This document shows positions 5,057-21,108 of a stretch of DNA of 64,000 nucleotides, piece after piece. The translations under genes were made by a program, and so were the position numbers. The notes under the pieces were generated by a model that saw only the letters and a program-made list of their open reading frames with translations, made no database searches and was not told the origin of the DNA. The DNA is from Minisyncoccota bacterium (GTDB taxonomy: Bacteria; Patescibacteriota; Minisyncoccia; Phycocordibacterales; UBA1006): positions 10,708 through 74,707 of the forward strand of contig JAJOIF010000001.1 in assembly GCA_021209525.1 (NCBI GenBank). The letters are read 5' to 3'. Each line of letters opens with the position of its first letter. Within the stretch, counting starts at the first letter, position 1.

Positions 5057-6148
5057 ATGCATGATGAGCACGATATTATTCTCATAGATAAACCCAAGGG
5101 TATCACTTCGTTTGATGTTATTCGTCAATTACGCAAAAAATTACAGATACGCAAAATGGGGCATGCAGGCACCCTTGACCCGCTCGCAAGCGGGCTCATG
5201 ATTATTGGTGTAGAAAGTGGCACAAAAAAACTTGATACATATTTACAATTACCCAAGGTCTACTATGCAGAAATATTACTCGGCAAGAAAAGTGATTCAG
5301 GCGACCTTGATGGCACCATTATAGAGCGCACCCCTGTGCGAGAACCATTACATGACCGTGATATAGAACAGGCTCTTGATCAATTGCGTGGCACACATAC
5401 CTATAGCGTACCTGTGTATTCTGCAATCAAAGTAGACGGCAAGCCGCTCTACTGGTATGCACGCAAAGGCATAACACCGCCGCGTATTCCTGTCAAAGAG
5501 ATGACTGTGACCGAAGTGTCGCTTCTTGATAGTTATGCGTCAGATGCGTATTGGATAATCAAGGTGCGTTTTGCAGTTTCTCGTGGTACGTACATTCGTG
5601 TCCTTGCCGAAGCCGTAGGTGCAGCACTTGGTTATCCCGCACTCCTTGCAAATTTGCGCCGTACGCAGATTGGTCCGTATAATATTGCTCATGCTCAACA
5701 TATTGAAGAAATATGGTATACTCAAGATATTACTCGTATAAGCAATACACATCATATGATACATACACAATGGGAAAACTTGACCATCAATATCAAAGCA
5801 ACTGATATTGAATTGACCGACCCTATTCGCGACTATATTGAAAACAAAGTAACGCGTTTGGGTAAATTCTTGCAATCACAAGGAGGAGATATTTTTGTCT
5901 ATTTTGAAATTGCAGAAACAGCACATCGCAACAATGAAGAAACCTATCGCGCAGACTGCAAAGTCGTATTGCGCGGCAAGGATTTCTATGCGAGCGCTAC
6001 GGGACCTGATTACATGAAAGCAATTGACGAAGTAAAAGAAAAACTCTACCACACGATTCATCAATCAAAAGGCAAAGAAGCGTCACTCTTTTTGAAGGGA
6101 GCGCGTGCGCTTAAAAAATTATTCCGTTTCAATAATCAAGACTCATAA
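5057..6148 (+). CDS. truB: tRNA pseudouridine(55) synthase TruB catalytic domain fused in frame to a ribosome hibernation promoting factor (HPF/RaiA, short form)
   Basis: Residues 1-230 carry the TruB motifs LIDKPKGITSFDVI and GHAGTLDPLASGLMIIG and lack a PUA domain. Residues ~245-363 (LTINIKATDIELTDPIRDYIENKV...YRADCKVVLRGKDFYASATGPDYMKAIDEV) align with YfiA/HPF. There is no stop codon between the two parts. Confidence 0.75.
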   Translation: MHDEHDIILIDKPKGITSFDVIRQLRKKLQIRKMGHAGTLDPLASGLMIIGVESGTKKLDTYLQLPKVYYAEILLGKKSDSGDLDGTIIERTPVREPLHDRDIEQALDQLRGTHTYSVPVYSAIKVDGKPLYWYARKGITPPRIPVKEMTVTEVSLLDSYASDAYWIIKVRFAVSRGTYIRVLAEAVGAALGYPALLANLRRTQIGPYNIAHAQHIEEIWYTQDITRISNTHHMIHTQWENLTINIKATDIELTDPIRDYIENKVTRLGKFLQSQGGDIFVYFEIAETAHRNNEETYRADCKVVLRGKDFYASATGPDYMKAIDEVKEKLYHTIHQSKGKEASLFLKGARALKKLFRFNNQDS

Positions 6149-8731: not shown

Positions 8732-8806
8732 GATCCCGTAGTTTAATGGATAGAACATCAGCTTGCGGAGCTGACGATGCAAGTTCGATTCTTGCCGGGA
8801 TCACCA
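8732..8806 (+). tRNA. tRNA-Arg (anticodon GCG by hand folding), CCA encoded
   Basis: Cloverleaf GATCCCG/CGGGATC acceptor stem, TTCGATT T-loop and TTGCGGA anticodon loop. The anticodon assignment is less certain than the tRNA call itself. Confidence 0.7.
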
Positions 8807-8921: not shown

Positions 8922-9128
8922 GTGAAAGACGAATCAAAAAAACTGGGTGAAAATCTCAGAAAAATCAGAACAAAAAAAGACATTACTCAAACAGGTCTTG
9001 CAGAGGCGTTGGGGGTTGATAAGTCTTTTATAAGTAATATAGAAAATGGAAAAACAAATCCAACTCTTTCAACCATTACTAGTATAGCCAAAGCTCTTGG
9101 TGTGTCATCTAATGAATTACTAAAATAA
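8922..9128 (+). CDS. XRE-family HTH transcriptional regulator (possible controller protein of the R-M operon)
   Basis: 68 aa containing TQTGLAEALGVDKSFISNIENGKTNPTLSTITSIAKALGV, a classic Cro/C1 HTH. Confidence 0.75.
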   Translation: MKDESKKLGENLRKIRTKKDITQTGLAEALGVDKSFISNIENGKTNPTLSTITSIAKALGVSSNELLK

Positions 9129-9132
9129 CTTT

Positions 9133-10716
9133 ATGAGTAAAGATAAAACAAATTTAAATACAACCAAAGAACAAGAGCGATCTGAGCTTCACCGTGCCAT
9201 TTGGCAAATTGCCAATGATCTTCGTGGCAGTGTTGACGGTTGGGATTTTAAACAATATGTTTTAGGAATACTTTTTTATAGATTTATCAGTGAAAACCTT
9301 ACAAATTACATCAACATAGACGAAAGACGATCTGGTAAAAAAGATTTTGATTACGCAACTCTATCAGATAAAGAGGCAGAATTTGGTCGTGCTGATACGG
9401 TAAAAGAAAAAGGTTTCTATATATTACCAAGTGAGCTTTTTGTAAATGTTCGTAAAAATGCCAGAAATGATGCAAACCTAAACGAAACATTATCATCTGT
9501 TTTTAATAATATTGAAAATTCTGCAAAAGGTTTTGACAGTGAAGATGATCTAAAGGGATTGTTTGATGACTTGGATGTGAACTCAAATAAGCTTGGTGGA
9601 TCGGTAGAAAAAAGAAATCAAAAACTTGTAAAGCTTCTTGAAGCAATTGGAGATCTTCGTCTTGGTGATTATGGAGACAATACTATCGATGCATTCGGTG
9701 ATGCGTATGAATTTCTAATGACCATGTATGCTTCAAATGCTGGTAAATCTGGAGGCGAATTTTTTACTCCTCAAGAAGTGAGTGAACTTTTGGCAGAAAT
9801 CACAACTGTTGGTAAAAAAGAAGTAAATAAAGTTTATGACCCATGTTGTGGTTCTGGTTCGCTTCTTCTTAAATTTGCAAAAGTACTTGGTAAAGAAAAC
9901 GTACGACAAGGTTTTTATGGTCAAGAAATAAACCTAACTACATACAATCTTTGTCGTATTAACATGTTCTTGCACGATATTAATTACAATAACTTTGATA
10001 TTGCTCACGGTGACACCCTTACAGACCCGAAGCATTGGGACGATGAACCATTTGACGCCATAGTTTCTAATCCTCCGTATTCAATCAAGTGGGATGGTGA
10101 CGCTAATCCTATTATGATTAATGATCCTCGTTTTTCTCCTGCTGGAGTTTTGGCTCCAAAAAGTAAAGCTGATTTGGCATTTACTATGCATATGCTTTCG
10201 TGGCTTTCTACCAGTGGAACGGCGGCGATTGTTGAATTCCCTGGAGTTCTTTATCGTGGCGGTGCTGAAGCAAAAATCCGTAAATATTTAATTGATAATA
10301 ACTATGTTGATGCAGTGATACAGCTCCCGCCCGATCTTTTCTTTGGTACTACAATTGCTACTTGTGTTGTTATCCTAAAGAAAAGCAAAAAAGATAATAA
10401 AACTTTGTTTATAGACGCTTCTGCTGAATTTGTGAGAGGTGGGAATAAAAACAAATTAAGTGGAGAAAATCGAAAGAAAATCCTTAATGCTTTTATTGAA
10501 AGAAAAGACATCGAACATTTTGCAAAAATCATAGACAACAAAGCTATCGCAGAAAATGATTACAATCTAGCAGTTTCTAGTTATGTGGAGCAGAAAGATA
10601 CGAGAGAGGTGGTGGATATAAAAGAGCTGAATAAAGAAATTGAGAGAATTGTAAAAAGACAAAGTGAGTTAAGGTCAGCAATTGATGAGATTGTTAATGA
10701 AATTGAAAATAAATAA
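9133..10716 (+). CDS. hsdM: Type I restriction-modification system DNA methyltransferase subunit HsdM
   Basis: 527 aa with the N-terminal HsdM_N region, the SAM motif DPCCGSGSLL and the N6-adenine motif IV VSNPPYS. Confidence 0.9.
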   Translation: MSKDKTNLNTTKEQERSELHRAIWQIANDLRGSVDGWDFKQYVLGILFYRFISENLTNYINIDERRSGKKDFDYATLSDKEAEFGRADTVKEKGFYILPSELFVNVRKNARNDANLNETLSSVFNNIENSAKGFDSEDDLKGLFDDLDVNSNKLGGSVEKRNQKLVKLLEAIGDLRLGDYGDNTIDAFGDAYEFLMTMYASNAGKSGGEFFTPQEVSELLAEITTVGKKEVNKVYDPCCGSGSLLLKFAKVLGKENVRQGFYGQEINLTTYNLCRINMFLHDINYNNFDIAHGDTLTDPKHWDDEPFDAIVSNPPYSIKWDGDANPIMINDPRFSPAGVLAPKSKADLAFTMHMLSWLSTSGTAAIVEFPGVLYRGGAEAKIRKYLIDNNYVDAVIQLPPDLFFGTTIATCVVILKKSKKDNKTLFIDASAEFVRGGNKNKLSGENRKKILNAFIERKDIEHFAKIIDNKAIAENDYNLAVSSYVEQKDTREVVDIKELNKEIERIVKRQSELRSAIDEIVNEIENK

Positions 10717-10717
10717 T

Positions 10718-11326
10718 ATGAAAAAAGGAATTATATATATAATGACAACTGCCGTTTCTGGTCTAATAAAAATCGGACAATCTGGAATAAATAATTTTCA
10801 AGAGAGAATGAGATTTCTTGAAGCCAATGGTTATTATAATGTTGTAGGATTAAAAAGATTTTTTGCAATTGAACTTGATGATTATGTAGATAAAGAAACT
10901 TTACTTCACGATATTTTTGAAAAACACAGAGTCGGTGAAAGTGAATTATTTGCTCTTGATCAAGAATTAGTCCGCCAACTACTCCTTTCGTTTGAAGGAA
11001 AAATCATTTACCCTGAAAATATTAACCAGGCGAAAGAATTTGATGAAGTTACAGAGATTAGAAAACAAGGAAAATTATTTAGTTTTTATAAAAAAGGATT
11101 AAAGAATGGAGATGAGATTCTCTTTATAAAAGACAAAAATATCAGTGCGAAAATTTGTGGAGAAAGAGAAGTAGAATATCAAGGTCAGATTTGGAAATTG
11201 TCACCGTTAGCATATAGGATCTTTGAACAACGTGGTGAGCTTAATACTAGTGGAGCTTATCAGGGTGCCAACTATTTTGAATACAATGGTAAAAAATTAA
11301 AAGATATTCCCGATAAAGTATTATGA
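10718..11326 (+). CDS. T5orf172-domain (GIY-YIG superfamily-like) protein embedded between hsdM and hsdS
   Basis: GIIYIMTT...GLIKIGQS...ERMRFLE...FAIELDD...LHDIFEKHRVGESELF follows the T5orf172 pattern. The start is 1 nt after the hsdM stop and the stop overlaps the hsdS start. Confidence 0.55.
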   Translation: MKKGIIYIMTTAVSGLIKIGQSGINNFQERMRFLEANGYYNVVGLKRFFAIELDDYVDKETLLHDIFEKHRVGESELFALDQELVRQLLLSFEGKIIYPENINQAKEFDEVTEIRKQGKLFSFYKKGLKNGDEILFIKDKNISAKICGEREVEYQGQIWKLSPLAYRIFEQRGELNTSGAYQGANYFEYNGKKLKDIPDKVL

Positions 11327-12528
11327 AAAAAAACCAATCCAAAATTGAAAAACTAATTTCAGAACTATGCCCTAATGGTGTGGAGTTTAAAATGCTTGGA
11401 GAACTAGAAGATGACAGTTTGATTAAACTTGGACGTGGAAATGTAATTTCAAAAAATGATATTTCTAATACTCCTGGTGATTTTCCTGTTTATTCCTCAT
11501 CAGCAAACGGAGAGGGAGAATTTGGAAGATATGGCAAGTTTATGTTTGATGACGAAAGAATAACATGGTCAATTGATGGTGGTGGTAGATTTTTCTATAG
11601 GTTCCCACACAAATATTCTGTAACAAATGTATCTGGGTGGTTAAAAGTAAATGATAATAATGTAATAAATACGCGTTATCTATATTTCGTTTTATCAAAT
11701 GCTTGGCTAACAAAAGTTTTTGATTATACAAAAAAAGCTCATCCTTCAGTAATTAGAGAGGAGTACAAAATCCCCATCCCACCCCTTGCAATACAAGAAG
11801 AAATTGTAAAAATTCTTAATAGTTTTACAGAGCTAGAAGCAGAGCTAGAAGCAGAGCTAGAAGCAAGAAAGAAGCAATATGAACATTATCGTGCACAACT
11901 CTTAACATTCCCAGAGGGGGGGGTACAATGGGTTAGGCTCAGTGATATTGGCACTATGATAAGAGGAAGTGGATTACAAAAAAAAGATTTTACAGAAACC
12001 GGAGTCGGATGCATTCATTATGGTCAAATTTATACATACTACGGGACTTTTGCAGATAAAACAAAATCATTTGTGTCTCCAGAATTGGCAAAGAAATTAA
12101 AGAAAGCTCAAAATGGTGACGTATTAATTGCTGGTGTCAGCGAAAATATTGAAGATGTATGCAAACCTTTGGGTTGGCTAGGTGGTGAAATTTGTATAAG
12201 TGGCGACATGTTTGCATTTCGTCATAATCAAAATACTAAATTTTTAACATACTTATTACAGACTCCGAATTTTCAAAAGTATAAAGAGAGATTTGCTCAC
12301 GGGACTAAAGTAATCCGAGTAAAAGTGGATAAAATTTTGGACTACAAAATTCCTGTGCCGTCACTTCAAGAGCAGGAACGCATCGTTTCAATCCTCGATA
12401 AATTTGATGCACTTGTGAATGATATTTCAATCGGTTTACCTGCCGAACTTAAGGCACGCAGGTCGCAATATGAGTATTATCGGGCAAAATTACTAACTTT
12501 TAAACCTGTAGAGCGTATGGCGATATAA
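11323..12528 (+). CDS. hsdS: Type I restriction-modification specificity subunit HsdS
   Basis: Two target recognition domains separated by a central conserved region (ELEAELEAELEARKKQYEHYRAQLLTF), plus the C-terminal conserved repeat (ELKARRSQYEYYRAKLLTF). Confidence 0.85.
   Translation: MKKNQSKIEKLISELCPNGVEFKMLGELEDDSLIKLGRGNVISKNDISNTPGDFPVYSSSANGEGEFGRYGKFMFDDERITWSIDGGGRFFYRFPHKYSVTNVSGWLKVNDNNVINTRYLYFVLSNAWLTKVFDYTKKAHPSVIREEYKIPIPPLAIQEEIVKILNSFTELEAELEAELEARKKQYEHYRAQLLTFPEGGVQWVRLSDIGTMIRGSGLQKKDFTETGVGCIHYGQIYTYYGTFADKTKSFVSPELAKKLKKAQNGDVLIAGVSENIEDVCKPLGWLGGEICISGDMFAFRHNQNTKFLTYLLQTPNFQKYKERFAHGTKVIRVKVDKILDYKIPVPSLQEQERIVSILDKFDALVNDISIGLPAELKARRSQYEYYRAKLLTFKPVERMAI
11830..11865 (+). 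repeat. Perfect 12-bp x3 tandem repeat (GAGCTAGAAGCA) inside hsdS encoding (ELEA)x3
   Basis: Read directly from the sequence. It is in frame within the hsdS central conserved spacer region. Confidence 0.9.
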
Positions 12529-12603
12529 ATACGCTCTACAGGGAAGTTAGTTTACATTGGTCTTGCTAATATAAACAAAATAGTATAAAATGTTTACATT
12601 GAT

Positions 12604-13782
12604 ATGAATAATATAAACCAATCAAAAATAGGACGATATATACAGCAAAAAGAAGGATATAAATCCTTTACGCCTTTTGAATTTCCACCAAAGGATGGTT
12701 TTGTTATTAGTACTAAACTTTACAAAAAACACGAGGAAGCTATTAGACTCGTTGGCAAATTAGATGGTATTACGCGCTTACTTCCAGATAAGGATTATTT
12801 TACTTTTATGTTCGTTGTAAAAGATGCAACATATTCAAGTCAAATTGAAGGGACAAAAGCAACCATGCAAGATGCAGTAGCCGCGCCGATAATTGAAGAA
12901 AAAAATCGCAAGGCTAGTGATGTGGATGATATTGAACATTATATCAAGGCAGCCAATTATGGGATTGAGAGAATCAAAGAATTTCCAATTTCACTTCGTT
13001 TTATTCGTGAATTGCATGAAAAACTCATGACTGACGCACGTTCTACTCATCATGCATATCCGGGACAATTTAGAACTTCTCAAAACTGGATCGGTGGTAA
13101 GACTCCTGCTGATGCTTCTTTTGTTCCACCAGCGCCAGATGATATGAAAAAATCTCTTGATGATCTGGAAAAATTCATTCACAAAAACGATGATTATCCC
13201 TCTTTGATTAAGGCGGGACTTTTGCATGCACAATTTGAAACTATTCACCCGTTTACTGATGGTAATGGACGCACTGGGCGTATACTTATCGCAATGTATA
13301 TACACTATGCAGGACTTTTGGAAGAGCCGGTGTTGTATCTTTCTAGTTATTTCAAAAAGTATCAAAAACTCTACTATCAAAAATTGCAAGGGTATCATGA
13401 TGATGAATCCGATATTGACGGTTGGCTCCTGTTTTTCCTTGAAGGAATAATTGAGATAGCAAACTCTAGTATTGAAACATGTACAAAGATCACAGAACTT
13501 CGCGATCGGGATTTTGCAAAGATGCAAAAGCTTGGTAAAAAGTCCGCCGAGTCAACACTTGAAATTGTTCGCAAGTTATATAGCCAGCCAATTGTAGGGG
13601 TAGCAGAAATAATGAAATGGACAGGATTTACTGCTCCTGGTGCATACAAGGTAATTGAAAGACTCAGAGATTTAAAAATTCTTGAGCCTCTTGGTGATGC
13701 AGATTATGATCAAAAATATGTCTATGCCGATTATTATGAATTATTTGATGAGGTGTTTAAAGAAGGTCGCAAAAAGAAATAA
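12604..13782 (+). CDS. Fic/DOC family protein (putative AMPylase-type effector) between hsdS and hsdR
   Basis: Canonical Fic motif HPFTDGNGRTGR within IHPFTDGNGRTGRILIAMYI, a Fic_N-like N-terminus and a C-terminal winged-helix-like tail. Confidence 0.85.
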   Translation: MNNINQSKIGRYIQQKEGYKSFTPFEFPPKDGFVISTKLYKKHEEAIRLVGKLDGITRLLPDKDYFTFMFVVKDATYSSQIEGTKATMQDAVAAPIIEEKNRKASDVDDIEHYIKAANYGIERIKEFPISLRFIRELHEKLMTDARSTHHAYPGQFRTSQNWIGGKTPADASFVPPAPDDMKKSLDDLEKFIHKNDDYPSLIKAGLLHAQFETIHPFTDGNGRTGRILIAMYIHYAGLLEEPVLYLSSYFKKYQKLYYQKLQGYHDDESDIDGWLLFFLEGIIEIANSSIETCTKITELRDRDFAKMQKLGKKSAESTLEIVRKLYSQPIVGVAEIMKWTGFTAPGAYKVIERLRDLKILEPLGDADYDQKYVYADYYELFDEVFKEGRKKK

Positions 13783-13784
13783 TT

Positions 13785-16700
13785 ATGACTAAAACCAACA
13801 AATACAATTTAGTTGCAGAAAATACACAAAGCACGGTTGTCGCCGAGTATGTTTCTGATGTCAAAAGAGTTTCGCAATATCAGAGCGAAGATGCTTTAGA
13901 AAAAGCTTTTATTCAGCAACTAGAATCTCAGGCATATGAATATTTAAATATTACTTCTGAAAATGATCTTATTCTTAATCTACGCAAACAACTAGAAAAA
14001 TTAAATAGTTATACTTTTTCTGATACAGAATGGGAAAGATTTTTTACAAGCGAGCTAGCAAATCCAAATCAAAGTATTGAAGAAAAAACCGCTACTATCC
14101 AAGAAGATAGCACCAAAATATTAAACAAAGATGACGGTACTTTTAAAAATATTGATTTAATAGACAAGAAAAATATTCATAACAATAGTCTGCAAGTTAT
14201 CAATCAATACACAACAGAAGACGGACAAAGATCTAATCGTTATGATGTGACGGTATTGGTAAATGGATTGCCACTTATTCATATTGAATTAAAACGCCGT
14301 GGAGTTGCTATTCAAGAAGCATTTAATCAGATAAATAGATATCAAAGAGAGAGTTTTTGGGCTTCAAGTGGTCTTTTTGAGTATGTGCAATTGTTTGTTA
14401 TCTCTAACGGCACACATACGAAATATTACAGTAATACAACCAGATCGCAGCACATTAAAGAAGCTCAAGAGGGTTCTAAAAATAAAGGCAAGAAAACAAG
14501 CAATAGCTTTGAATTTACGAGCTGGTGGGCAGATGCTACTAATCGCCCTATTACTGATCTAATGGATTTTGCAAAAACATTTTTTGCAAAACATGCGATT
14601 TTAAATATACTGACGAAGTATTGTGTATTTACGACTGATCGTCTATTGCTCGTGATGCGACCGTATCAAATTGTTGCAACTGAAAGAATTTTAAATCGCA
14701 TCGAAGTAAGTACAAATTATAAAAAGCTTGGCACTACTGAAGCAGGTGGCTATATTTGGCATACCACAGGATCTGGAAAGACTCTAACGAGTTTTAAAAC
14801 TGCACAATTGGCAAGTAAATTGTCATATGTCGATAAAGTGTTGTTTGTAGTTGATCGTAAGGATTTGGATTATCAGACAATGAAAGAGTATGACAAGTTT
14901 GAAAAAGGTGCGGCAAACAGTAATACCAGCACTTCAGTTTTAAAGAAACAGCTTGAAGACTCAAATTCTCGAATAATTATAACCACTATCCAGAAGCTTG
15001 ATAGATTTATTGCGAAAAACTCTGGGCATACTATTTTTGATGGTCATATCGTAATTATTTTTGATGAATGCCACCGATCACAATTTGGTGAAATGCATGC
15101 AGGAATTGTTAAGGCATTTAAAAATTATCATTTGTTTGGATTTACTGGAACTCCGATATTTTCTAAAAATGCTTCAGCTGGTGGTAGACCCGATTTTAAA
15201 ACCACAGAGCAGGCTTTTGGTGAGAAATTGCACACTTATACAATAGTTGATGCTATTTCTGACAAAAATGTTTTGCCGTTTAAGGTTGATTATGTTTCTA
15301 CGGTTCGTGAAGCGGAAAACATAGAAGATGCGAAAGTAAAAGATATTGATCGTGAGGCAGTTTTATCAGCACCCGAGCGTTTAGAAAATATTGTTCGCTA
15401 TATTCGTGAACACTTTGATCAAAAAACCAAACGAAATAGTTTTTATAAAATCCAAGACAGAAGGCTGGCAGGATTTAATTCTATATTTGCAGTTTCTTCC
15501 ATTGATGTAGCTAAAAAATACTATCTTGAATTTAAAAAACAGTTAGCGGATGAACCAAGTGATAAAAAGTTAAAGGTTGCCACAATATTTAGTTTTGGGG
15601 TAAATGATGAGGATGCAGATGGGATGATTGATGAGAATTCCGAAGATACCAGTGGTCTTGATGTAAGCTCTAGAGATTTTCTGGAAAGTGCAATTAAAGA
15701 CTACAACAAAATGTTTGGAACCTCTTATGATACGTCGTCTGATAAATTTCAAAATTACTATAAAGATGTAAGTGAGAAAGTGAAGAAAAGAGAAATTGAT
15801 ATTTTGATTGTGGTTAATATGTTTTTGACTGGGTTTGATGCAACTACACTTAACACGCTTTGGGTAGATAAAAATCTTCGTTTACATGGATTATTGCAAG
15901 CATATTCAAGAACGAATCGTATTTTAAATAGTGTTAAAACTTTTGGAAATATTGTTTGTTTTAGAAATTTAGAAAAAGCTACCAATGAAGCAATCGCACT
16001 CTTTGGAGACAAAGAAGCTGGTGGAATTGTATTACTTAAAGCATATGAGGATTATTACAATGGGTATAAAGATGGCGATAAAGAAATACGAGGATACAAG
16101 AGCCTTGTAGATGAATTGCTTGAAAAATTCCCCGTTGGAGAAAGAATTGTTGGAGAACAAAATCAAAAAGACTTTATAAAGTTATACGGAGCGATTTTGA
16201 GAGTGAAAAATATTTTGACTACTTTTGATGAATTTACTGGTAATGAAATATTATCTCCTCGTGATGTGCAGGATTATCACAGTATGTATATCGATCTATA
16301 CAATGAATTCCGCAAAACTGATGATTCTGAAAAAGAAAATATCAATGATGATATTGTCTTTGAAATGGAGCTTATTAAGCAAGTCGAGATTAATATTGAT
16401 TATGTACTAGGTCTTATTAAGAAATACCATGAGGATCATGTTTTGAACAAAGAGCTTCTCGTGGATATTAATAAAGCGATTGATTCGAGTGTGGAATTGC
16501 GTAATAAAAAAGATTTAATCAATCAGTTTATTACTTCTCTTGATGTTCATTCTATTGTTGATGAAGATTGGCAAAAATTTGTAGAAGAGAAAAAAGTCCA
16601 AGAATTAGAGCAAATTATTGAAACTGAAAATCTTGATCCTGAAGCTACATATAAATTTATACAAAATGCTTTCAGGGACGGAAATGTGCCAACAACAGGA

Positions 16701-16853
16701 ACGGCGATTAGTAAGGTTTTACCGCCAGTTTCTAGGTTTTCTCCTACTGGTGAAAGAAGTCAAAAAAGAGAAAGTGTATTGAATAAATTAACTAAATTTT
16801 TTGAAAGATTTTTTGATATTTCTGGAGGTAAATTTACATCTAATGAAAATTAA
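13785..16853 (+). CDS. hsdR: Type I restriction enzyme endonuclease/translocase subunit HsdR
   Basis: 1022 aa with an N-terminal nuclease region, SF2 helicase motifs (GSGKT Walker A and the DECH box IIFDECHRS) and a C-terminal HsdR domain. Confidence 0.9.
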   Translation: MTKTNKYNLVAENTQSTVVAEYVSDVKRVSQYQSEDALEKAFIQQLESQAYEYLNITSENDLILNLRKQLEKLNSYTFSDTEWERFFTSELANPNQSIEEKTATIQEDSTKILNKDDGTFKNIDLIDKKNIHNNSLQVINQYTTEDGQRSNRYDVTVLVNGLPLIHIELKRRGVAIQEAFNQINRYQRESFWASSGLFEYVQLFVISNGTHTKYYSNTTRSQHIKEAQEGSKNKGKKTSNSFEFTSWWADATNRPITDLMDFAKTFFAKHAILNILTKYCVFTTDRLLLVMRPYQIVATERILNRIEVSTNYKKLGTTEAGGYIWHTTGSGKTLTSFKTAQLASKLSYVDKVLFVVDRKDLDYQTMKEYDKFEKGAANSNTSTSVLKKQLEDSNSRIIITTIQKLDRFIAKNSGHTIFDGHIVIIFDECHRSQFGEMHAGIVKAFKNYHLFGFTGTPIFSKNASAGGRPDFKTTEQAFGEKLHTYTIVDAISDKNVLPFKVDYVSTVREAENIEDAKVKDIDREAVLSAPERLENIVRYIREHFDQKTKRNSFYKIQDRRLAGFNSIFAVSSIDVAKKYYLEFKKQLADEPSDKKLKVATIFSFGVNDEDADGMIDENSEDTSGLDVSSRDFLESAIKDYNKMFGTSYDTSSDKFQNYYKDVSEKVKKREIDILIVVNMFLTGFDATTLNTLWVDKNLRLHGLLQAYSRTNRILNSVKTFGNIVCFRNLEKATNEAIALFGDKEAGGIVLLKAYEDYYNGYKDGDKEIRGYKSLVDELLEKFPVGERIVGEQNQKDFIKLYGAILRVKNILTTFDEFTGNEILSPRDVQDYHSMYIDLYNEFRKTDDSEKENINDDIVFEMELIKQVEINIDYVLGLIKKYHEDHVLNKELLVDINKAIDSSVELRNKKDLINQFITSLDVHSIVDEDWQKFVEEKKVQELEQIIETENLDPEATYKFIQNAFRDGNVPTTGTAISKVLPPVSRFSPTGERSQKRESVLNKLTKFFERFFDISGGKFTSNEN

Positions 16854-16861
16854 AAAATTAT

Positions 16862-18328
16862 ATGAATACTGTTTGTATATTAAAAAATTTTCTAGAGTAC
16901 GAGCCATTACCTGAATTAATGCAAGGTGCAGGAATAGCAATTATTACACTGTTAATATCATTTGCTATTGGTATTTTGATACATCATTTAGGAGATAAAG
17001 AACGCAAGGGTGGTTTTCTAGATATTCATGTAGCGTTAGATTATGTTTGGCGTTTTAAACAATCCTTATTTCTAATAGTAATAGTCGTTGTATCACCATT
17101 TTTATTTGCATTTGAAAGCTTAAATATAAAAGCTTTGGTTTTCATAGTTTGGTCTATTTCTATTACTTTATTAATTTATATTAATATTCGATTATATTAC
17201 TGGGTTAAAGGAGATAAAGATGATTTTAGAAAAAAATATCTTTCAAATTTTCCAAAATCACCTAGAGATAAAATTGTTTCTTGGGGAGATTTTTGGAGTA
17301 CCGATATTAATAAGGGTAAAAGATTTACTGAGCCAGATTTTTTCTCAATTTTCTCTAAAGAAATTGATGCATTGTTAATCTCAAATAATAAAGAAGATTG
17401 GGAAACAGTGTTAAAGTTATTAGATGATTTTGTAGATAAAATTGAACTTAGAAATAAAACTTTTCTTGTAGTACTTGATGAATTCTTTCCGAAAATTCTT
17501 GAATGGCATTACTTTCTATGGGAGAAACAATTTACTCAGTATTCAATCGAATTAGGAAAAGAAAATCCTAAAATTGATACATATTTATTTCAAATAGATC
17601 AGCTTATAGATAAAATAATTAAATTTATTACCAATAGTGCGCTAACTACAGGTAATGCCTTTTCATATTTTGATAGACTAAAAAATCATATTGAAAAATA
17701 TGAAGACAAAAATATAGTAGGAGCTAAATTGACATATGAATATATACAACAAATTCCTATTTATGAAGATTGTTTAAATTTGACTTCAAAATCCCCAGAA
17801 GCTTATGATATCTGGAATCATTATTTCCCAGAATCATGGAAGATAACGATTAGTAATCTTGAGAAAAATAAAATATCATGGATTTGGTATGATAGATTTT
17901 TAAATTGGTCTCAATCTAGGATTTGGAATGAAAAAGAAGAATGGGATAAAGATTTAGATGAGGTCGCAAAATCACTTTTCCCAGAGGTTGATCCTATAAC
18001 GTGGGCAAAAATTTATACTTTCGTAATTAGACCGTTTTCAAACGACAGAATGAAATCAATTATAGAAAGTAAGGTAAATTTTGGTTATGTGGGACGCGTA
18101 TATTCTGGTTGGGGCGATGATATGGAAACTAGTTTTGCAAAAAAACAGCAAGAAGAACTTGAAAATACAATTAAGCTAGCTAAATATTTATTCGGTAAAG
18201 TTTTTACAAAGGAAAATATCGACAATTGGATAAAAGAACTTGAAAAATTAGAGTATCTTAAAGATTCAGATGAAAATAGAAAAAAGGAATACTGGAAAGC
18301 CTTACTGGGTAAACTAAAAAATAATTAA
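16862..18328 (+). CDS. Hypothetical membrane-anchored protein (3 N-terminal TM helices plus a ~380 aa cytoplasmic helical domain) immediately downstream of hsdR
   Basis: TM segments are predicted from hydrophobic stretches. No domain was recognised. It lies on the same strand, 9 nt after the hsdR stop. Confidence 0.5.
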   Translation: MNTVCILKNFLEYEPLPELMQGAGIAIITLLISFAIGILIHHLGDKERKGGFLDIHVALDYVWRFKQSLFLIVIVVVSPFLFAFESLNIKALVFIVWSISITLLIYINIRLYYWVKGDKDDFRKKYLSNFPKSPRDKIVSWGDFWSTDINKGKRFTEPDFFSIFSKEIDALLISNNKEDWETVLKLLDDFVDKIELRNKTFLVVLDEFFPKILEWHYFLWEKQFTQYSIELGKENPKIDTYLFQIDQLIDKIIKFITNSALTTGNAFSYFDRLKNHIEKYEDKNIVGAKLTYEYIQQIPIYEDCLNLTSKSPEAYDIWNHYFPESWKITISNLEKNKISWIWYDRFLNWSQSRIWNEKEEWDKDLDEVAKSLFPEVDPITWAKIYTFVIRPFSNDRMKSIIESKVNFGYVGRVYSGWGDDMETSFAKKQQEELENTIKLAKYLFGKVFTKENIDNWIKELEKLEYLKDSDENRKKEYWKALLGKLKNN

Positions 18329-18334
18329 TATAAT

Positions 18335-18622
18335 TTACCCCTTAATCTTAACTCTACTATTTATCAAGGATAGTTCACTACTAATACACTCTAGCACTGA
18401 TCTTTGCTCTAACGCTGAACCCTCTTTCAATACAAATTTAGCATAGTCTTTCAGGTCTATCGTTTCAATTTTTTCAGTTTTCTTTTTACCTAAAAACATC
18501 GCTTGTAATTTTTTAAATTTCTGAATTTCACTATTTAATTTAGAGGTAAGCTGTACTTTATTTAAACTTAAGGTATCAATCATTTTTAGAAGTGCTTCTA
18601 TAAGGTCTGGAAGGTACCCCAA
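18335..18622 (-). pseudogene. C-terminal fragment of a large serine recombinase (coiled-coil tail only)
   Basis: DLKDYAKFVLKEGSALEQRSVLECISSELSLINSRVKI aligns with the tail of the 31783-32262 recombinase fragment ([36 protein letters not shown]). The catalytic domain is missing. Confidence 0.5.
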
Positions 18623-18638
18623 AATTCAGACACCTTTT

Positions 18639-19693
18639 CTACGTACGTTCATCATATATCAGCACTTCTTTCTCTGCAAATTGTAGGGGCGCCATACCCA
18701 ACACAGAGTGTATCCTTCTTCGATTGTAATAGTTGATGGTCTTGTAGATTTCAGCTACAAGCTCACCAAGTGTTTCAAATCGATTAGGATCTCCAAGGTC
18801 TAGCTTGAACCCTTTGTAAAAGGATTCTTGATAGCCATTCTCCCAGGGACATCCAGGCCTACTCATGGATTGTTGTATACCTAGTTTCTGAACAAGAGCA
18901 GTGTAGTCTTTTGAGGTATACTCACTTCATTGGTCTGAGTGAATGATTCTCGGTGGTGCACGATGGAGTACAGCATTAAGTAATGCATTCATCACAAGCT
19001 GTGTAGCATGAGTGGTCAGAATAGCTACCCCTACAATCTCTCTGGTATATACATCAATGACCCTAGTAGGATAGATCCATTTCCCTTGAAACTTGAGGTA
19101 GGTGAAGTCAGATGCATAGATATCTCCCCTCCCACGAGGTGTCTCAAACAACAAGAGATTTGAGAAGATACTGTCTTTTGTCTTGTATACAAAGGGTTTC
19201 TTGGTGTATCTACGATATGGCTTGATACCAAAGATCTTCATGACTCTAAGTATTCGTTTCTTGTTGATTTTCAAGTGGAGTGCAAGACGCTTGTGGCCAT
19301 ATCCTGGATGTTCACGTAACACTTCTTCAATCATTTGCTTCGTCCTCCAGTCTTTAAGAGGTTGCTTGTGTTGATAGTACTGATGGGTTCGTTTGATACC
19401 TATGCGAGTACCATCTATACTTAGGCTCTTGAGGGCCCCTTTTTAGCCTCCATAGACATACGAATGGTAAGTTCTCCAATCAATCTCTTTAACTCTTCAT
19501 TCTCCTTCTTGAGCTTATTGTGAACTAATACACTCACTGAACCCTTGGCTTTGTTCCCAAGCCATGAGTAGATCGTAACAGTACTCACTCCAATATTCTG
19601 TGCTGCTTGGGCAACGCTGATACCTTGATGTTTGATACGGTTAATAGTTTCTTCTTTGATTTCTTTTGAGATTTTGAATTTCTTTTTGGACAT
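18639..19693 (-). mobile_element. Degenerate IS3-family insertion sequence. orfA (19421-19693) is intact, but orfB is N-terminally truncated and split by an in-frame TGA (18927-19334 plus 18639-18866)
   Basis: OrfA has an HTH plus a leucine zipper (IS3/IS911 type). The OrfB pieces carry DDE-integrase motifs (IIHSDQ, GCPWENGYQESF, YNxxRxH). The orfA/orfB overlap is lost. TGA is a genuine stop codon here because prfB is present. Confidence 0.7.
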
Positions 19694-19815
19694 ATATGTA
19701 TTCTATATTAATTAATAATTACATAGAATAGTTGTCTGAAGAAAGGGGTACCTTTCTCACCTAATAAAAACACCCCGCATGATGTATACGGGGTGTGGTT
19801 ATTAAGCAAATAACC

Positions 19816-20609: not shown

Positions 20610-20705
20610 ATATAAATTATCTCGTCAATTTTTGTAACATTGCGGAGCTGAGAAACATGTTGCAGGTATACAAAAACCGCCACCATGTGACGGTTTCTGT
20701 GTATG

Positions 20706-21108
20706 TGGAGATGGGCGGAGTCGAACCGCCGTCCATGAACATCCCTGAGCAACATCTACGAGTGTAGATGTATTTTTTATATCTATGCAAATAGATAATC
20801 TCAACACCGCCACCTTTAAAATACTCGAAACAGTAGCAGTGTCTATCTTGATGATTTAAAAGATATGTTCAAGAGGCGCATATCTTCGAGTGTAGGTATA
20901 TGACATCACGATCCTCTCTCTACACACAAGAGGCGCGACGACATCGCATTATATTATGCGAATGCTGGCGTAAATCCAAATGCTGAAGCATAAGGGCTTA
21001 CTACTTTCTTTGCGTTTGCACTTAAAGAAGTGTGGTCGATTTACGAGTATACCACAACTCGACCCGCATTACTCAGGGGGATTGTACATGTCGAAGCCAG
21101 ACATCCCC
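20706..21108 (-). ncRNA. ssrA: tmRNA (SsrA)
   Basis: The 5' end GGGGATGTCTGGCTTCGACATG matches the tmRNA consensus GGGG.UG.UUCUGG.UUCGAC. The 3' end GGTTCGACTCCGCCCATCTCC-A forms a tRNA-like T-arm and acceptor with the 5' end. The internal reading frame GCA AAC GCA AAG ... GCA TTC GCA TAA gives the tag ANAKKVVSPYASAFGFTPAFA. smpB is adjacent. Confidence 0.75.

Follow-up and report, generated by a model that had tools for sequence, protein, structure and literature searches.

A self-contained SoFic-type Fic cassette with putative operators of its own between hsdS and hsdR of a type IC restriction-modification operon

The 64,000-nucleotide stretch of contig JAJOIF010000001.1 that we analyzed (positions 10,708 to 74,707 of a Minisyncoccota bacterium assembly; the window, with positions counted from its first letter) contains a type IC restriction-modification (R-M) operon, complete for hsdM, hsdS, and hsdR, in which a Fic gene lies between hsdS and hsdR. 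The original prediction, made from the letters alone, had placed an intact Fic motif in this position, and our analysis bears this out. Pfam recognizes both Fic (PF02661, E = 7.8e-21) and Fic_N (PF13784, E = 4.7e-17) in the encoded protein, far beyond chance. The Fic ATG lies 75 nt past the hsdS stop codon, and only 2 nt separate the Fic stop codon from the hsdR ATG. An identical protein is on record from a metagenome-assembled genome of a Candidatus Pacebacteria, a member of the candidate phyla radiation (CPR). The genes concerned are the following.

12604-13782, + strand: Fic gene, 392 aa, ATG start, stop codon included
9133-10716, + strand: hsdM (TIGR00497, 781 bits)
11323-12528, + strand: hsdS, two target-recognition domains (Pfam Methylase_S, PADLOC Specificity_I)
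13785-16853, + strand: hsdR, with HSDR_N, SWI2_SNF2, T1R_D3, and EcoR124_C domains, type IC family

Within the Fic protein, we located the active-site motif, an inhibitory-helix motif, and, at the C-terminus, a winged helix-turn-helix (wHTH), as listed here.

13246-13281, + strand: active-site motif HPFTDGNGRTGR, aa 215-226
12835-12852, + strand: intramolecular inhibitory-helix motif S78-S-Q-I-E82-G83, found by pattern search and matching (S/T)xxxE(G/N)
13537-13725, + strand: C-terminal winged helix, aa 312-374, from the secondary structure of the model
13633-13671, + strand: predicted recognition helix, aa 344-356
13630-13638, + strand: predicted specificity residues T343, A344, and P345

We aligned the protein with 39 relatives, and across these 40 sequences the active-site residues H215, P216, F217, D219, N221, R223, G225, and R226 are invariant, as are S78, E82, and G83. 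With the motif canonical and unchanged among relatives, catalytic competence, as had been proposed, is a fair prediction from the sequence. The inhibitory-helix motif lies within Fic_N, N-terminal to the Fic core, and in the HMMER alignment its counterpart in S. oneidensis SoFic is SSEIEN, where the inhibitory Glu73 of that enzyme is located. The original prediction had proposed a search for just such a helix as evidence against its own reading, and had overlooked the one that is present. Since the inhibitory motif is found in the same chain as the active site, the protein is a class II Fic. The absence of an adjacent antitoxin gene, noted earlier, holds as well: neither the 75-nt upstream gap nor the 2-nt downstream gap fits a separate antitoxin ORF. 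We could rule out a class I arrangement (VbhT/VbhA, FicT/FicA) or an AS1-like antitoxin on the same grounds, as there is no room for either and no conserved DNA past the stop codon. Pfam returned Fic_N and Fic only, and the PrrC/RloC domains (an ATP-binding cassette (ABC) ATPase with a HEPN anticodon nuclease) are absent from the protein.

Sequence and fold both place the protein among SoFic-type enzymes. The PADLOC SoFic model PDLC03963 matches with E = 2e-105 over model positions 5-359 of 361. Against the NCBIfam SoFic equivalog NF046030, the protein scored 135.5 bits and did not reach the cut-off of 550; we therefore dropped orthology to S. oneidensis SoFic and use the term SoFic-type instead. 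Sequence matches in the PDB were 7cb8 from M. marinum, which was the best (E = 2e-32), and the SoFic entries 3eqx, 3zcn, and 9tch. An AlphaFold2 model of the protein had a predicted template modeling (TM) score of 0.78 and a mean predicted local distance difference test score (pLDDT) of 72.8, with values below 50 at residues 216-220. Foldseek matched this model to SoFic (3eqx/3zcn) at a TM of 0.72-0.77 and to 7cb8, the best fold match, at 0.76, followed by CbFic2 and 7xux, which we take to be the CccR structure. The winged helix consists in the model of helices 312-325, 333-340, and 344-356 and two wing strands, and the C-terminal part gave weak MarR-type Foldseek matches (E = 0.24-0.8). Homologues of the Fic protein also occur in phages (phrog_5978, E = 8e-83).

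The Fic gene is a sharply bounded, self-contained cassette of about 1.2 kb. DNA similarity extends to more than 40 independent loci; it starts at 12543-12574 in about 50 loci, that is, some 30-60 nt before the ATG, and stops at 13736-13796, at or just past the Fic stop codon. The mobile unit is the Fic ORF plus a leader of about 57 nt, and the cassette covers approximately 12545-13782. At its edges we saw no target-site duplication, recombinase, or conserved target sequence. The leader and its elements are as follows.

12545-12603, + strand: conserved 5' leader of the Fic cassette, from upstream sequences compared in register with the ATG
12550-12576, + strand: putative operator O1, GTTTACAT-N11-ATATAAAC, spanning the -35 element
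12592-12618, + strand: putative operator O2, GTTTACAT-N11-ATATAAAC, spanning the predicted transcription start, the ATG, and codons 3-5

The leader holds a sigma-70-like promoter at 12563-12591, with TTGCTA as the -35 element (12563-12568) and an AT-rich -10 element (12584-12591); relatives have TTGACA or TTGCAA at -35 and TATAAT at -10. There is no Shine-Dalgarno sequence in the leader, and the predicted Fic transcript is nearly leaderless. Four copies of an 8-mer (boxes 1 to 4) are paired as two inverted repeats, O1 and O2, which are spaced 42 bp apart and are the sole two matches to the pattern in the 64-kb window, where 0.23 would be expected. Upon comparison among loci, the base at position 5 of the half-site was found to be T or G, and the four half-sites of a given locus agree with one another at this position with a frequency of 0.92, as against 0.49 +/- 0.03 after shuffling (500 shuffles, maximum 0.57). 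The operator type follows the protein. Residue 345 is Pro in 26/26 T-type loci and Gln in all 22 alignable G-type loci (1.0 bit of mutual information), while residues 344 and 343 carry 0.92 and 0.61 bit and no other position of the 392 exceeds 0.51. Residues 343-345 open the predicted recognition helix at 344-356. All four pairings of helix and half-site were seen, namely TAPGAY with GTTTAYAT, SPQGAY with GTTGAYAT, TKPGAY with GTTTACCT, and SKQGAY with GTTGCC or ACCT. When the whole Fic proteins are ordered by similarity, T and G operator types are interleaved.

Because the half-site bases co-vary with residues 344 and 345, these comparisons point to recognition of the O1 and O2 half-sites by the winged helix of the Fic protein, and hence to self-repression. 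We predict a recognition code: at half-site position 5, T goes with Pro345 and G with Gln345, and C-rich positions go with Lys344. Neither the operator/recognition-helix code nor the bounded cassette is described for this Fic clade in the literature that we searched. Both extend the known behavior of CccR and SoFic and do not add a new category.

The 5' edge of the cassette coincides with a further feature.

12506-12544, + strand: perfect 14-bp hairpin with the hsdS stop codon in its loop, ending exactly at the cassette 5' edge

The RNA fold of 12500-12660 has a free energy of -36.2 kcal/mol (z = -5.6). This hairpin is not present at the orthologous hsdS-hsdR junctions or at the other Fic-locus junctions compared. 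We rejected it as a canonical terminator since it has no T-run; possible readings are an insertion scar, an attenuator, and an RNA-processing site.

SoFic-type systems are a named single-gene anti-phage family (Millman 2022; E. coli EcSofic), to which PADLOC would assign the window gene. The window protein shares with SoFic itself (S. oneidensis SO_4266) and its kin the order of a dimerization helix, Fic_N with S/TxxxE(G/N), an HPFxDGNGRxGR core, and a winged helix at the C-terminus. SoFic AMPylates switch I of EF-Tu and thereby blocks translation, and the dimeric protein binds the 100 bp upstream of its own start codon; the predicted operators of the window Fic likewise fall within about 60 bp of the ATG. 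The two proteins differ in that they are only about 22-23% identical in a structure-based alignment and in that a type I operon of a CPR bacterium encloses the window gene. EcSofic is toxic and is paired with AS1, a small antitoxin gene (about 47 aa) downstream, whereas the window gene has no AS1-like small downstream ORF and is followed by hsdR 2 nt past its stop codon. The M. marinum protein 7cb8 has the same length and domain order as the window Fic, yet it is only 26% identical and was crystallized with cytidine diphosphate (CDP). A second model for self-repression is CccR of Yersinia pseudotuberculosis, which also combines a class II Fic with a helix-turn-helix (HTH) at the C-terminus, toxin and regulator in one chain. 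CccR acts as repressor of its own promoter by way of inverted repeats near -35 and -10, for which it must be dimeric. CccR differs in having a single 10-N26-10 operator, as opposed to two 8-N11-8 sites 42 bp apart in the window, in being a type VI secretion system effector that targets FtsZ, and in its weaker fold match to the window protein (TM about 0.5). In CbFic2 as well, activity is modulated by DNA binding.

We next consider where relatives of the Fic gene lie, using 79 genome loci with Fic proteins 49-86% identical to that of the window and flanks of up to 10 kb. Their hosts include many CPR phyla, Udaeobacter (Verrucomicrobiota), Gammaproteobacteria, Chloroflexia, and Phycisphaerales, and the cassette spans many phyla at 65-93% identity. 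The flanks of 57 of the 79 loci are without any hsd gene. Among the 44 loci in which both flanks extend to 3 kb or more, the Fic gene is embedded, with hsd genes on both sides, in seven (about 16%). The 137 immediate neighbors are led by N6_Mtase (7), ResIII (6), GmrSD (5), HSDR_N (5), and Methylase_S (4). When four genes on each side of Fic were clustered for 75 loci, no recurrent partner gene emerged; the largest non-Fic cluster, an HsdM-like methylase, occurs in 13 of the 75. Fic and R-M genes are truly associated, but in the manner of a defence island or hotspot. The embedded copies sit in non-orthologous systems whose HsdM is only 24-37% identical to that of the window, and in none of the Fic loci is HsdM more than 37% identical to it. 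The slots used are M-S, S-R, and R-M, with the following gene orders.

L063: M-S-Fic-R, EcoEI-type HsdR
L056: M-S-Fic-(small ORF)-R
L060: S-Fic-R
L031: M-Fic-S-R
L053-L055 and L041: R-Fic-M

In these other embedded loci, the spacing from the Fic stop codon to the start of the downstream hsd gene is 6-37 nt, compared with 2 nt in the window, and most of the upstream hsd genes end no more than about 20 nt from the leader edge. More distantly, plasmid pSYSX of Synechocystis PCC 6803 (L160, 85273-100331) has a 40%-identical Fic in its hsdS-hsdR gap, on the opposite strand and beside a higBA pair; the same operon has a hypothetical gene between hsdM and hsdS. Within 10 kb of the cassette, several loci also contain a distant second Fic paralogue, 24-35% identical (L008, 10390-10977; L005, 10702-11031; L033, 9145-9624; L067, 4635-5339), and the one in L008 lies just upstream of hsdR. 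That Fic/Doc toxins occur in R-M neighborhoods was noted in 2013, and "guilt by embedding" has already been applied systematically to type I R-M systems. In the literature, we found nothing specific on COG3177 with R-M systems or on Fic between hsdM and hsdS.

The converse comparison starts from the R-M operon. We collected 80 orthologous metagenome loci (L080-L159), in which HsdR is 64-86% identical to that of the window and HsdM, where present, 54-90% identical, mostly 67-90%. The window's Fic cassette is in none of these 80 operons, the nearest being a 36%-identical Fic in L143. In 46 of the 67 scorable loci, hsdS abuts or overlaps hsdR. The slot is filled in the other 21, where we found Bro-N (5), Fic (3), an IS200-type transposase (3), RhuM (2), 23S-IVP (2), a protein kinase (2), PrrC-type AAA_13 (2), Schlafen/AlbA_2, and DUF3800. 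Cargo is even more frequent in the hsdM-hsdS gap, where 36 of 54 loci have it, including RhuM (10), AAA_15/21 (4), Shedu (SduA_C), SMODS with SLATT, a reverse transcriptase, T5orf172, and DUF6119. This type IC operon family thus has variable cargo sites in both of its intergenic slots. The original prediction had named a lack of conservation at this position in related operons as evidence against itself, and this is what we find: most of the orthologous slots are empty and few of the Fic relatives are embedded.

The window operon itself carries a second embedded gene, in its hsdM-hsdS slot, and a small gene ahead of hsdM.

10718-11326, + strand: MUG113/T5orf172 (GIY-YIG-like) gene in the hsdM-hsdS slot, PADLOC candidate PDC-S57 (E = 2e-54)
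8922-9128, + strand: small HTH_3 protein of 68 aa, ending 4 nt before the hsdM start (Pfam, PADLOC Control_protein)

The former has relatives with 71-84% identity in this slot in L117 and L135; others lie after hsdR in L120 and directly after the Fic gene in L008. The HTH_3 protein resembles R-M controller (C) proteins, with PDB matches to C.AhdI and C.BclI (E ~1e-8), and its position is analogous to that of the RptR repressor in the type I/DarTG2 island of enteropathogenic E. coli (EPEC). In that island, DarTG2 lies at the hsdS-hsdR site, which the literature describes as a hotspot, and is under a small repressor encoded by the first ORF; TgvAB is embedded in a V. cholerae type I operon (VPI-2). 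The window resembles both in that a type I operon houses an independent defence or toxin module, the island opens with an ORF for a small HTH regulator, and the site is described as a recombination hotspot. It differs in that the effector families are others and in that the window cargo is predicted to carry its own repressor domain. From 8922 to 18328 the genes are all co-directional (C-protein-like HTH, hsdM, MUG113/T5orf172, hsdS, Fic, hsdR, and a 488-aa ORF) and make up a low-GC island, at 0.27-0.36 as compared with about 0.40-0.45 in the upstream flank and 0.37-0.39 just downstream. The island starts just after a tRNA-Arg(GCG) gene at 8732-8806. On its 3' side lies a decayed IS3-family element (18592-19773) with 54-nt imperfect terminal inverted repeats and split rve ORFs, and past this element, close to the island, a tmRNA gene (20705-21108). 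This setting of tRNA-Arg, IS3-family remnant, and tmRNA is typical of an integration hotspot.

Taken together, the inhibitory motif, the bounded cassette with its putative operators, and the distribution of relatives make it likely that the Fic gene is an autonomous, auto-inhibited, self-repressed class II SoFic-type toxin/defence cassette inserted at the hsdS-hsdR hotspot. On the models of CccR and SoFic, a Fic dimer would bind both palindromes and repress its own promoter, and Glu82 would further restrain the enzyme, as in relatives. A trigger, probably phage infection, would relieve both repression and inhibition. The released Fic, for which we assume ATP as the nucleotide substrate, could then AMPylate an essential protein, leading to growth arrest and abortive infection. 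We favor this outcome because a SoFic-type gene protects against phage T5 and because EcSofic is toxic. The Fic gene and the R-M system are most likely related through a common place in a defence island and joint horizontal transfer, not through PrrC-like masking.

Several observations weigh against this reading. The NCBIfam score falls so far short of the SoFic cut-off that target and trigger may differ from those of SoFic, and the closest solved relative, 7cb8, was crystallized with CDP and not ATP. Among SoFic-type genes, one homologue is known to act against phage T5, and in S. thermophilus protection was minimal. The AlphaFold2 model is of moderate quality overall and poor around the active-site loop. 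An hsd gene is directly adjacent to Fic in 14 of the 79 loci, and R-M genes are the commonest immediate neighbors. The embedded copies, furthermore, are all co-directional with the downstream hsd gene 2-37 nt away, so a functional link is possible. Lastly, the co-variation of operator and helix could partly reflect shared ancestry or linkage within a 1.2-kb cassette.

Among the alternatives, the one that survives best, although we regard it as rather unlikely, is that the Fic gene is a selfish addiction or stabilization cassette, or a physiological regulator (a reversible (de)AMPylase and transcription factor adjusting translation or growth), that has no dedicated anti-phage role and hitch-hikes in R-M operons as tolerated insertion sites. 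SoFic constitutively deAMPylates EF-Tu and binds its own promoter; its authors suggested a role in growth regulation. EcSofic acts like the toxin of a toxin-antitoxin pair. The spread of the cassette over many phyla, the phage homologues, and the minimal protection afforded by the S. thermophilus SoFic all agree with such a role. However, the commonest neighbors of the cassette are defence genes (type I/II methyltransferases, HsdR, GmrSD, and HNH), a class II SoFic was protective against T5 in experiment, and the window copy shares its low-GC island with the embedded defence candidate PDC-S57.

Direct coupling of toxin and restriction, in which the Fic autorepressor gates HsdR dosage or a disabled R-M system triggers Fic, is in our estimation unlikely. 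The gating idea arises because transcription into hsdR passes both putative operators and because hsdR starts 2 nt past Fic. If coupling did operate, toxin and endonuclease would rise together upon loss of repression or under anti-restriction attack, and the tight co-directional packing at the M-S, S-R, and R-M junctions of unrelated type I operons would reflect selection and not tolerance. A cassette that gates hsdR or senses R-M inhibition would constitute a second mechanistic class of R-M guardian besides PrrC.

A guard of the PrrC kind appears improbable. Here the type IC complex would keep Fic latent until a phage anti-restriction protein disables the complex and frees it to AMPylate a host target as a second line of defence; the original prediction had likewise compared the position to that of PrrC and suggested that regulation could come from the R-M complex. 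The comparison of slots is sound. Fic shares both the slot and the R-M family (type IC, EcoR124_C HsdR) with prrC of ecoprrI, as a potentially toxic enzyme beside a first-line restriction system, and PrrC-type AAA_13 proteins fill this slot in two of the orthologous operons; for Fic itself the position is not conserved. The recurrence of the cassette inside type I operons (7 of 44), always co-directional, would also fit a guard, as would the 2-nt spacing to the hsdR ATG and the layered R-M and toxin strategies with DOC/Fic toxins that have been proposed in the literature. Regulation by the R-M complex, on the other hand, is not borne out. The Fic protein has its own inhibitory Glu helix, promoter, and putative operators, and most of its close relatives (57 of 79) have no hsd gene in their flanks. 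Fic proteins 56-84% identical to that of the window occur in operons of both EcoR124 and EcoEI types with HsdM only 24-37% identical, and in three different slots; since such similar Fic proteins sit in unrelated R-M hosts and slots, a conserved contact between Fic and the R-M complex is implausible. In pSYSX, moreover, the Fic gene in the S-R gap is on the opposite strand. PrrC, by comparison, is almost exclusively embedded in type I R-M systems and masked by the complex, while Fic of the window type is mostly stand-alone, self-inhibited, and equipped with its own promoter. In fold and chemistry, the ABC ATPase and HEPN RNase of PrrC and RloC are unrelated to Fic.

Translational control by a box 3/box 4 hairpin that hides the start codon is highly improbable and was rejected: the two boxes are complementary and flank the ATG and a Shine-Dalgarno sequence is absent, but boxes 1 and 2, upstream of the -10 element, co-vary equally, the variable base follows recognition-helix residue 345, boxes 3 and 4 are not paired with each other in the minimum-free-energy fold of 12500-12660, and CccR and SoFic bind promoter DNA.

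As an autonomous SoFic-type cassette, the Fic gene is one more of its family in a defence island, here in a CPR bacterium, and the window locus confirms the type IC hsdS-hsdR junction as a cargo slot. The predicted recognition code could help dissect how DNA binding, dimerization, and AMPylation are coupled in wHTH-Fic enzymes.

The co-directional gene string ends with a further ORF.

16862-18328, + strand: 488-aa ORF starting 8 nt after hsdR, with a hydrophobic N-terminus and several probable membrane helices

Its product matches nothing in Pfam, NCBIfam, PADLOC, or PHROGs. In the orthologous operon L089, a relative with 33% identity is found upstream of hsdM, and the ORF may be another accessory defence gene. 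Elsewhere in the window, the ORF at 5057-6148 (363 aa) encodes a TruB pseudouridine synthase (TruB_N, E = 5e-39) fused to a ribosome hibernation factor domain (Ribosomal_S30AE, aa 244-340, E = 7e-12).

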